Assembly: GCF_003334255.1 (NCBI RefSeq)
Contig: NZ_QOWU01000225.1
Origin: Escherichia coli
GTDB taxonomy: Bacteria > Pseudomonadota > Gammaproteobacteria > Enterobacterales > Enterobacteriaceae
Length of the DNA stretch: 526 nt
Strand: one strand, 5' to 3'
In this document: piece after piece, positions 1 through 526 of the stretch
How the letters are laid out: each line of letters starts with the position of its first letter
Position numbering within the stretch: the first letter of the stretch is position 1
The notes under the pieces: model-generated
Told to the model about the DNA's origin: nothing
The model's input: only the letters and a program-made list of their open reading frames with translations
Databases searched by the model: none
Translations under genes and position numbers: made by a program

Positions 1-2
1 CC

Positions 3-37
3 GTAGGCCGGATAAGGCGTTCACGCCGCATCCGGCA
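3..37 (-). repeat. REP palindromic unit, Y-type (canonical orientation on minus strand), loop variant TC (plus-strand reading)
   Basis: Reverse complement of 3-37 is tgccggatgcggcgtgaacgccttatccggcctac, matching the E. coli Y-type REP consensus. Stem GCCGGAT (7-13) pairs with ATCCGGC (30-36); inner stem GGCGT (16-20) pairs with ACGCC (23-27). GTAG at 3-6. Confidence 0.85.
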
Positions 38-49
38 GTCGTGCGCAGA

Positions 50-86
50 TGCCTGATGCGACGCTAACGCGTCTTATCAGGCCTAC
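50..86 (+). repeat. REP palindromic unit, Z-type (probably Z2), plus orientation
   Basis: tgcctgatgcgacgctaacgcgtcttatcaggcctac. Stem GCCTGAT (51-57) pairs with ATCAGGC (76-82); inner stem GACGC (60-64) pairs with GCGTC (69-73); loop taac; 3' tail CTAC at 83-86. The T at stem position 4 (GCCTGAT vs GCCGGAT) is as I recall for Z-type units. Confidence 0.8.
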
Positions 87-103
87 AAATTCCCGCGCCA
101 TCC

Positions 104-138
<35 letters not shown>

Positions 139-150
139 GTCGTGCGCAGA

Positions 151-187
151 TGCCTGATGCGACGCTAACGCGTCTTATCAGGCCTAC
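151..187 (+). repeat. REP palindromic unit, Z-type, plus orientation
   Basis: Identical to 50-86. Confidence 0.8.
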
Positions 188-204
188 AAATTCTCGCGCC
201 ACCC

Positions 205-239
205 GTAGGCCGGATAAGGCGTTCACGCCGCATCCGGCA
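205..239 (-). repeat. REP palindromic unit, Y-type, loop variant TC (unit A)
   Basis: Identical to 3-37. Confidence 0.85.
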
Positions 240-251
240 GTCGTGCGCAGA

Positions 252-288
252 TGCCTGATGCGACGCTAACGCGTCTTATCAGGCCTAC
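252..288 (+). repeat. REP palindromic unit, Z-type, plus orientation
   Basis: Identical to 50-86. Confidence 0.8.
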
Positions 289-305
289 AAATTCCCGCGC
301 CATCC

Positions 306-340
<35 letters not shown>

Positions 341-352
341 GTCGTGCGCAGA

Positions 353-389
353 TGCCTGATGCGACGCTAACGCGTCTTATCAGGCCTAC
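353..389 (+). repeat. REP palindromic unit, Z-type, plus orientation
   Basis: Identical to 50-86. Confidence 0.8.
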
Positions 390-406
390 AAATTCTCGCG
401 CCACCC

Positions 407-441
407 GTAGGCCGGATAAGGCGTTCACGCCGCATCCGGCA
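407..441 (-). repeat. REP palindromic unit, Y-type, loop variant TC (unit A)
   Basis: Identical to 3-37. Confidence 0.85.
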
Positions 442-453
442 GTCGTGCGCAGA

Positions 454-490
454 TGCCTGATGCGACGCTAACGCGTCTTATCAGGCCTAC
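454..490 (+). repeat. REP palindromic unit, Z-type, plus orientation
   Basis: Identical to 50-86. Confidence 0.8.
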
Positions 491-507
491 AAATTCCCGC
501 GCCATCC

Positions 508-526
508 GTAGGCCGGATAAGGCGTT
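508..526 (-). repeat. REP palindromic unit, Y-type, partial (truncated by window end)
   Basis: gtaggccggataaggcgtt matches the first 19 nt (plus-strand reading) of the Y-type units at 3-37 and 104-138; the window ends before the loop. Confidence 0.7.

Follow-up and report, generated by a model that had tools for sequence, protein, structure and literature searches.

Local and extended hairpins in a probable mhpE-mhpT BIME-2 array of Escherichia coli

BIME-2 arrays, described by Gilson, Bachellier and colleagues and summarized by Ton-Hoang et al. 2012 (PMC3333891), are built of palindromes of 30-40 nt that carry a GTAG tag, with short linkers conserved at a given locus and a copy number that varies between strains; the 2012 study reverses the Bachellier convention for naming REP orientation. 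The E. coli transposase TnpA_REP acts on single-stranded BIMEs and requires a REP hairpin, a 5' GTAG and non-complementary bases in the stem (PMC3333891), and TGCC|TGAT has been reported as a TnpA_REP cleavage site confined to z iREPs (Ton-Hoang et al. 2012, PMC3333891). A second closely related concept is the REPIN, a REP doublet that forms a hairpin (Bertels and Rainey 2011, PMC3116915; PMC3337134). REPINs have been described for ssDNA or mRNA and for tandem clusters, in a survey that includes E. coli K-12 (PMC3116915; PMC3337134).

At the level of transcripts, the closest described system is REP325, a related Y/Z2 array that functions as a partially Rho-dependent attenuator and as a stabiliser of upstream mRNA, and whose transcripts form a ladder with steps of hairpin units. 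Early REP papers on malE-malF reportedly raised the possibility of a large stem-loop; a literature search for this classical discussion found nothing relevant. BIME-2 arrays, their Y/Z2 composition and the long hairpin of inverted REP doublets are all already published. Added here are the quantified near-isoenergy of the predicted folds, a mismatch cost of about 25-34 kcal/mol, and the implausibility of an extended cruciform.

Identity and architecture of the array

Analysis of the window, by which we mean the whole 526-nt stretch of DNA, revealed a BIME-2 tandem array of 5.2 copies of a 101-nt unit (TRF: period 101, 97% matches) with a higher-order period of 202 nt, alternate copies being 100% identical and adjacent copies 97%. 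Each unit consists, in order, of a GTAG-Y REP, a 12-nt linker, an inverted Z2 REP-CTAC and a 17-nt linker (Table 1). Among the hallmarks of BIME-2, those found are GTAG-tagged imperfect palindromes, alternation of y with z2 and of REP with iREP, tandem copies and an extragenic position. The imperfect palindrome of the Y unit together with its GTAG spans 3-37, and the inverted Z2 unit including the terminal CTAC spans 50-86. On the plus strand GTAG recurs at 104, 205, 306, 407 and 508, and it is also found at the Z2 units on the minus strand. GTAG at 3-6 pairs with CTAC at 83-86 in the extended fold only.

Table 1. Coordinates of the array, of its first unit and of the predicted hairpins
Feature	Position	Strand	Basis
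BIME-2 array	1..526	.	TRF, direct-repeat family, mhpE-mhpT matches
Y-linker-Z2 module, alternative extended hairpin	3..86	.	repeat finder, DNA/RNA folds
GTAG, 5' foot of Y REP	3..6	+	motif scan
Y-type REP local hairpin	7..36	+	RNA MFE and centroid; Rfam naRNA4 consensus; RNAalifold (121 modules)
Inner 12-nt linker GTCGTGCGCAGA, joining the non-GTAG ends of Y and Z2	38..49	+	sequence
TGCC|TGAT, match to the type I iREP cleavage-site consensus of TnpA_REP (putative site)	50..57	+	motif scan
Z2-type inverted REP local hairpin	51..82	+	Rfam naRNA4, RNA fold, RNAalifold
GGCC|TACA, match to the type II cleavage-site consensus (putative site)	80..87	+	motif scan
CTAC, complement of GTAG, 3' foot of Z2 iREP	83..86	+	motif scan
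Outer 17-nt linker between GTAG ends, AAATTCCCGCGCCATCC alternating with AAATTCTCGCGCCACCC	87..103	+	sequence

Within the Y hairpin, a 7-bp stem (7-13/30-36) is followed by a 2x2 internal loop, a 4-bp stem (16-19/24-27) and a loop at 20-23, and its two helices are paired in 98.7% and 96.9% of the alignment cells. The Z2 hairpin, with 98.3% of cells paired, has an outer stem of eight pairs (51-58/75-82) with a G58·U75 wobble as its closing pair, C59 as a bulge of one nucleotide, an inner 5-bp stem (60-64/69-73) and a loop at 65-68. Both hairpins repeat at intervals of 101 nt. The helices of the extended hairpin are formed by 3-19 with 70-86 (outer) and by about 20-37 with 50-69 (inner), the inner linker being its apical loop region, and the outer linker is the loop of an alternative hairpin between a Z unit and the following Y unit. 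Among the 164 REP pairs joined by their non-GTAG ends in the survey described below, linker lengths of 5 and 12 nt predominate. Because the window is a 101-nt tandem array, the Y/Z2 pairing recurs in all five complete modules (3-86, 104-187, 205-288, 306-389 and 407-490). TGCC|TGAT occurs on the plus strand only and in Z2 units only, at 50, 151, 252, 353 and 454, and it is the Z-specific T that creates this motif. The ORFs in the window are no more than periodic repeat artefacts of 34-39 aa, and scans of the window for promoters and intrinsic terminators found none.

The Rfam family RF02564 (naRNA4), whose consensus structure consists of two separate local hairpins, matched all five modules with 85.0-87.2 bits on the plus strand and 62.0-62.7 bits on the minus strand, against a gathering score of 59.5. 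Matches to MIR5274 (23-25 bits, gathering 100) and Pseudomonas P17 (20 bits, gathering 45) were dismissed as chance or low-complexity matches to the repeat.

Comparison with 5426 complete E. coli genomes revealed matches to the window in every one, at a median of 23 and a range of 8-51 places per genome, in keeping with REP/BIME sequence. The outer linker with short flanks was present in 1654 of the 5426 genomes, in each at just 1-4 places, indicating that it is locus-specific. The best full-length matches (98.7% identity, none of the genomes searched giving 100%), together with identical linkers, fall in the array between mhpE and mhpT, so that the window is most likely this E. coli array; the assignment rests on the linkers, the window itself being without unique flank. 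The mhpE-mhpT arrays of DLI.5a and of an XL10-Gold K-12 derivative have the same linkers and different array lengths, and the mhpE-mhpT intergenic space of MG1655 is, by length alone, shorter still. The matching arrays are extragenic, lying between the annotated mhpE and mhpT coding sequences, as read from those genomes rather than from the flankless window. Both flanking genes are on the minus strand of the window, and the mRNA sense is therefore most likely its reverse complement.

Complementarity of the Y and Z2 units and predicted folding

The outer arms of the module, 3-19 (GTAGGCCGGATAAGGCG) and 70-86 (CGTCTTATCAGGCCTAC), are 17 nt long, 50 nt apart and 88% complementary. A preliminary description of this DNA had reported complementarity at 15 of 17 positions, and both a repeat finder and a direct check bear this out, including the two exceptions that it named: G10·A79 is a mismatch, and G17 stands opposite T72, which in RNA is a G·U wobble. 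The partial complementarity that it noted between the inner halves (20-37 and 50-69) amounts to about 14 of 18 positions as counted by eye. When the 101-nt unit was shuffled with its dinucleotides preserved (n = 300), the best 17-mer complementarity was 9-13 and never 15, and the unit folds more stably than its shuffles (z = -4.4 for RNA and -3.8 for DNA). Y and Z2 represent the same imperfect palindrome, diverged and facing opposite ways, and their arms are therefore necessarily complementary: when Z2 is reverse-complemented, its outer arm differs from that of Y only at the two mismatch positions (GTAGGCCGGATAAGGCG versus GTAGGCCTGATAAGACG), and to say that Y is complementary to Z2 is to say that Y resembles reverse-complemented Z2. 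The above-chance complementarity is fully explained by homology; it comes with the architecture and is no feature in its own right.

The proposal that a module can fold either as two hairpins of ~35 nt or as one long imperfect stem-loop, of ~84 nt here, agrees with our predictions, in which the two folds of a single-stranded module are near-isoenergetic, lying about 1-5 kcal/mol apart. For the 101-nt unit as RNA, the local fold makes up 84% and the extended fold 15% of the ensemble on the plus strand, and 20% and 80%, respectively, on the minus strand. As DNA, the corresponding values are 28% and 67-70% on the plus strand and 8% and 91-92% on the minus strand, the DNA MFE of one module being the extended hairpin on both strands. 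Folding-program runs for RNA and DNA agree with these values. The extended fold is thus contained in both the RNA and the DNA ensembles; predictions giving local hairpins only, which the preliminary description had named as the outcome that would speak against it, were not obtained. In the bare 84-nt module the extended fold is 1.4-5.0 kcal/mol lower, and the preference flips with the strand and with about 15 nt of flank. Formation of the long hairpin gains the GTAG:CTAC pairs, the A14/A15:T74/T75 pairs and the saving of one hairpin loop, at the cost of the Y/Z2 mismatches. To pass from the completed local fold to the completed extended one by a direct path, a barrier of 12.8-16.4 kcal/mol has to be crossed. 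When 254 distinct inverted REP pairs were folded in isolation, the extended fold was favoured in about 70-80% of the strand-specific folds. By these models, the long hairpin is a thermodynamically competitive alternative in single-stranded nucleic acid only, that is, in a transcript or in transient ssDNA.

Two observations count against the interpretation that we favour below: for one unit, the extended fold is preferred in DNA of either strand and in minus-strand RNA, likely the mRNA sense, and local hairpins are not favoured at equilibrium in most settings.

Folding of longer segments agreed with the suggestion that a tandem array allows many alternative pairings between neighbouring units, since both two units and the whole window gave long inter-unit hairpins. 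The hairpin at 3-86 is not the favoured inter-unit fold, its share falling to about zero with two units; instead, on both strands and as RNA or DNA, two units form one long hairpin centred on the outer linker, in which Z of the first unit pairs with Y of the second and Y of the first with Z2 of the second (96-100% of the ensemble). At equilibrium the whole window forms a single giant hairpin with mostly long-range pairs. These array predictions are for naked nucleic acid at or near equilibrium, and the giant hairpins should not be taken at face value. A crude growing-chain simulation, a heuristic rather than Kinfold or DrTransformer, also formed inter-unit helices with refolding limited to 8, 12 or 16 kcal/mol. 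It therefore cannot be claimed that the order of transcription traps the RNA in local hairpins, and we dropped kinetic trapping as an argument for them.

The energetic balance of a single module depends strongly on the difference between Y and Z2. The class differences are compensated within the local hairpins (G10-C33 in Y versus T-A in Z2, and G17-C26 versus A-T), and in the extended fold of the window they appear as four mismatches. The extended fold of the natural module is 2.5-7.6 kcal/mol better than two isolated hairpins, compared with an advantage of 26-37 kcal/mol for hypothetical Y/Y or Z/Z modules with an exact-complement partner. Heterotypy is therefore predicted to remove about 25-34 kcal/mol of the extended-fold advantage, and so to weaken the long hairpin strongly without abolishing it.

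In duplex DNA the balance is different, and the extended cruciform that the preliminary description had envisaged in supercoiled DNA fails a rough energy balance, with a net cost of about +20 to +62 kcal/mol. By nearest-neighbour calculation the 84-bp duplex has -133 kcal/mol and the two imperfect hairpins have -26.5 and -28.6 kcal/mol, so that exchanging the one for the other costs about 78 kcal/mol, compared with about 58 kcal/mol of duplex for two local cruciforms and about 29 kcal/mol for a single Y or Z2 cruciform. At sigma -0.06 the net energy of the extended cruciform is +20 to +31 kcal/mol, rising at sigma -0.03 to +51 to +62 kcal/mol; that of two local cruciforms is +15 to +43 kcal/mol, the extended one always being worse. 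The extended balance predicted at sigma -0.06, +21 kcal/mol for the natural module, would become about -23 to -26 kcal/mol for a homotypic one. The model is rough, as it combines the usual quadratic term for supercoiling with 1 M salt parameters and omits a junction term; even so, the gap is large. With four mismatches and the loss of 25-34 kcal/mol, an extended cruciform in duplex DNA is thus energetically implausible on this model.

Comparative evidence on local and extended pairs

Loci for comparison came from a pattern scan of one genome per species, the pattern fixing most of the outer arms, which yielded 76 loci (677 kb) from Escherichia, Citrobacter, Pseudocitrobacter, Raoultella, Kluyvera, Klebsiella and others; an nhmmer census of these loci contained 442 REPs. 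The position that defines the Y and Z classes, G10 in Y and T in Z2, is paired with its local partner in 397 of the 442 REPs (G-C in 231 and T-A in 166), about 19 being non-pairs and the rest gapped at one of the two columns. This is a clear case of two-state covariation within the REP. A second class pair (G17/C26 versus A/T) was assessed by direct inspection of the window only, the HMM-column analysis having been dropped since a Z2-specific 2-nt insertion misaligns it.

The same position also reports on the extended hairpin, which requires the same base in adjacent inverted partners, so that identical partners are those paired in the extended fold. Such identity was found in 13 of 164 GTAG-outside pairs and in 7 of 140 GTAG-inside pairs. 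Within Escherichia, the class position matches in 9 of 226 adjacent inverted pairs, against a random expectation of 50% (binomial p = 1.5e-53), and differs in the other 217 (96%); because many of the sampled pairs are tandem copies and non-independent, the safer figure is the count of loci, heterotypic pairs being present in 40 of 41. Near-perfect homotypic doublets are present in other Enterobacteriaceae, indicating that long REP hairpins are tolerated, and possibly used, there. Selection against long perfect palindromes, considered as a cause of the Y/Z alternation, is weakened as an explanation by these doublets. That the Z-specific T also makes the TGCC|TGAT motif is a further reason not to read the weaker long hairpin as the cause of heterotypy.

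Covariation was assessed in an alignment of 121 distinct Y-Z2 modules (A1), with 500 shuffles as the null. The RNAalifold consensus of this alignment is two local hairpins. For the local structure 98.2% of cells are paired, with 15 double-change cells compared to 1.5 in shuffles (0 of 500 reaching the observed value), a signal kept modest by the low variation within modules. For example, in nine sequences a pair of the inner Y stem changes from G-C to A-U, and the matching pair of the extended fold is thereby lost; in 12 sequences that extended pair is open. For the extended structure 94.6% of cells are paired, through conservation alone, and no covariation was detected (12 double-change cells compared to 19.4 in shuffles, with 461 of 500 reaching the observed value). 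The variation examined therefore supports preservation of the two local hairpins only, and the comparative data suggest nothing in favour of maintenance of the extended pairing. Isolated REP pairs favour the extended fold while covariation supports the local hairpins, so that thermodynamic preference is uncoupled in this case from maintenance in evolution.

Interpretation and comparison with known REP systems

We consider it probable that the window is a BIME-2 array, most likely that of mhpE-mhpT, in which the Y/Z2 complementarity is an architectural by-product, the local hairpins of ~30 nt are the structures preserved, and the long hairpin is competitive only when the nucleic acid is single-stranded. 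Each tandem module of the array would then join a Y-type REP to an inverted Z2-type REP, diverged versions of one palindrome, and the two local hairpins, which bear the covarying pairs, would be the preserved structures. These hairpins would present the single-stranded GTAG and the stem mismatch needed by the REP-associated transposase, and the long hairpin would be an imperfect, heterotypic version of a REPIN that competes in the transcript or in transient ssDNA. In the mhp transcript, read from the minus strand, we infer that the array acts as a barrier to 3' exonucleases and as a transcription attenuator, like other REP arrays, and either fold would block 3' exonucleases. BIME-2 arrays are sites of DNA gyrase binding and cleavage and of Pol I binding. 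The link drawn in the preliminary description between the hairpin folds and mRNA protection, pausing or gyrase binding is conjecture.

An alternative is that the long Y-Z2 hairpin in ssDNA is itself the functional unit that the REP-associated transposase recognises, excises or copies, the local hairpins being secondary. The extended DNA MFE on both strands (67-92% of the ensemble) and the preference of most of the 254 isolated inverted REP pairs are in keeping with this idea, as are the near-perfect homotypic doublets in other Enterobacteriaceae and the REPIN literature, which proposes such a hairpin, describes compensatory changes in the REPIN spacers of Pseudomonas and covers E. coli K-12 (PMC3116915; PMC3337134). 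Nevertheless, we judge it unlikely, since the extended pairs lack covariation, the Y/Z alternation places mismatches in the long stem of 96% of Escherichia pairs, and heterotypy takes away 25-34 kcal/mol relative to a homotypic doublet. In addition, TnpA_REP of E. coli depends in vitro on the local hairpin, on GTAG in single-stranded form and on mismatched bases in the stem (PMC3333891), all of which the extended hairpin would bury. Another proposal, that an 84-bp cruciform is extruded in the negatively supercoiled chromosome and underlies gyrase or HU binding at BIME-2, draws on the fact that the module is an inverted repeat and on the naRNA4/HU literature, which invokes REP cruciforms. We find it scarcely credible, given the net energy of about +20 to +62 kcal/mol at sigma -0.06 to -0.03 and a 2026 preprint that found no REP325-dependent nucleoid compaction and no stable HU-cruciform-naRNA4 complex.

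The closeness of the two folds raises another idea, namely that the Y/Z2 heterotypy of Escherichia BIME-2 modules is tuned rather than accidental and keeps the conformers within a few kcal/mol of each other, which we think very unlikely. If true, the module and the array would be a conformational switch set by strand, flanks, helicases or bound proteins, and this switch would gate the access of transposase to GTAG and the cleavage sites, or the strength of exonuclease and Rho blocking. That the near-degeneracy has been tuned so that the module acts as a switch altering exonuclease blocking, Rho access or transposase access gains some appeal from folds only about 1-5 kcal/mol apart, from a preference that flips with strand and about 15 nt of flank, and from the expectation that homotypic designs would be locked in the extended fold. 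Yet the extended pairs of alignment A1 give no sign of selection, near-degeneracy is not general (most isolated pairs having a predicted P(extended) near 1), and much longer hairpins dominate the equilibrium of the array, so that such a switch strikes us as highly improbable. The reading we prefer, a BIME-2 array with preserved local hairpins and a long hairpin that competes only in single strands, matters for drawings of REP-array RNAs, naRNA4 among them, and for planning probing and mutational work on REP-mediated mRNA stabilisation and termination.

Comparison with described systems suggests where the module belongs. Rfam RF02564, naRNA4 (CssrE), is the Y-l-Z2 unit of REP325 (Qian et al. 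2015, PMC4550694) and the same module as that of the window. The two differ in locus, yjdM-yjdN for naRNA4 compared to mhpE-mhpT for the window, and the likely transcribed strand of the window is antisense to the Rfam orientation. naRNA4 is regarded as a discrete, HU-associated RNA with a part in nucleoid organisation; the nucleoid-condensing function proposed for it is disputed by the 2026 preprint, which finds a terminator and stabiliser role.

The idea of a long hairpin within the module, for which the architecture and the prediction both hold, is not new and corresponds to the published REPIN (PMC3116915; PMC3337134). With REPINs the module shares two inverted REPs, a short spacer and a long hairpin predicted in ssDNA or RNA; what it lacks, judging from alignment A1 and the Escherichia pairs, is a maintained long hairpin and highly similar REPs. 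In Pseudomonas, the two REPs of a REPIN are near-perfect homotypic partners, and changes in the long hairpin are compensatory, whereas the doublet of the window is heterotypic, has systematic mismatches and no covariation in the long stem, and has local hairpins that are about equally stable. A REPIN would also have a cognate RAYT (tnpA_REP) in its own genome by which the doublet is mobilised; on this point the window offers the matches to the TnpA_REP cleavage-site consensus at 50-57 and 80-87 as putative sites. Compared to known BIME-2 elements nothing essential differs, since the palindrome length, GTAG tag, locus-conserved linkers and strain-variable copy number are all shared, and the window adds a 202-nt higher-order repeat of two modules. 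The module is best filed as a BIME-2 module with an imperfect, heterotypic hairpin of the REPIN type.

Higher-order period and length variation of the array

Unit-to-unit sequence comparison across window positions 1-526 revealed a 202-nt higher-order period, with odd and even 101-nt units differing at three positions, one in the Y loop and two in the outer linker, that recur at +202 (Table). Since units spaced two apart are identical and odd and even units differ, the array may have been amplified as two-module blocks, as this sequence pattern suggests. The intergenic array between mhpE and mhpT showed strain-to-strain length polymorphism in the three strains compared. Among the complete E. 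coli genomes searched, none contained a 100% match to the window, the best match being 98.7%.

Table. Coordinates of array features (window positions unless a genomic locus is named)
Feature	Locus	Position	Strand	Detail
Odd/even unit difference		22/123 (+202 repeats)		C/T, Y loop
Odd/even unit differences		94/195, 101/202 (+202 repeats)		C/T and T/C, outer linker
mhpE-mhpT array	L001	2811-3690		DLI.5a, ~880 bp
mhpE-mhpT array	L002	2908-3585		XL10-Gold K-12 derivative, ~678 bp
mhpE-mhpT array	L003	2383-2959		MG1655, 577 bp
ORFs		49-168, 150-269, 251-370, 352-471	+	periodic frames
ORFs		122-226, 324-428	-	periodic frames
Sub-threshold Rfam matches		41-148, 243-350, 108-399		MIR5274 and P17
Homotypic REP doublet	L064	4231-4309
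Homotypic REP doublet	L065	2701-2779
Homotypic REP doublet	L066	3177-3256
Homotypic REP doublet	L069	6085-6164
Homotypic REP doublet	L072	9597-9676
Homotypic REP doublet	L020	2571-2643
Homotypic REP doublet	L033	2468-2550
Y-Z2 module	L028	165-241		720-bp contig, assembly titled Alkalicoccobacillus porphyridii
Y-Z2 module	L077	38-114		261-bp contig, assembly titled Methylobacterium frigidaeris
BIME-2 array	L054	905-2454		Escherichia sp. MOD1-EC7003

Predicted folding, Rfam matches and reading frames

Folding prediction for the bare module (3-86, plus-strand RNA) gave as the lowest-energy local fold a hybrid, in which a multiloop closed by pairing of GTAG 3-6 with CTAC 83-86 encloses both local hairpins. 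The Rfam matches to MIR5274, a plant microRNA precursor (23-25 bits versus a gathering score of 100), and P17, a Pseudomonas sRNA (20 bits versus 45), fall below threshold; the most plausible explanation for them is chance similarity between long imperfect hairpins.

The only ORFs in the window were periodic frames of 39 and 34 aa arising from the repeat, almost certainly its artefacts. In one genome matching the window, a PGAP 'hypothetical protein' annotation spans the array (NZ_CP171864.1, 956030-956475).

REP doublets and arrays in other genomes

Typical Escherichia-type Y-Z2 modules were also observed on tiny contigs of two assemblies titled as other genera, where they probably represent enterobacterial contamination. 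The BIME-2 array of Escherichia sp. MOD1-EC7003 is very long, with 22 pattern matches (both strands counted); its modules measure 77 nt and have a 5-nt inner linker.

The REP census (L004-L079) included 12 neighbouring pairs in direct orientation (+/+), which depart from the usual alternating rule of BIMEs; the gap was 16 nt in 11/12, and both partners were Y-type in 11/12, with one partner gapped at the class-defining column in the other pair. Homotypic doublets were present in other Enterobacteriaceae, namely an MGYG isolate, Pseudocitrobacter and Kluyvera; their outer arms are 17/17 complementary and their predicted fold is wholly one long hairpin. These doublets resemble REPINs, in contrast to the Y/Z2 pairs of Escherichia, which are heterotypic.
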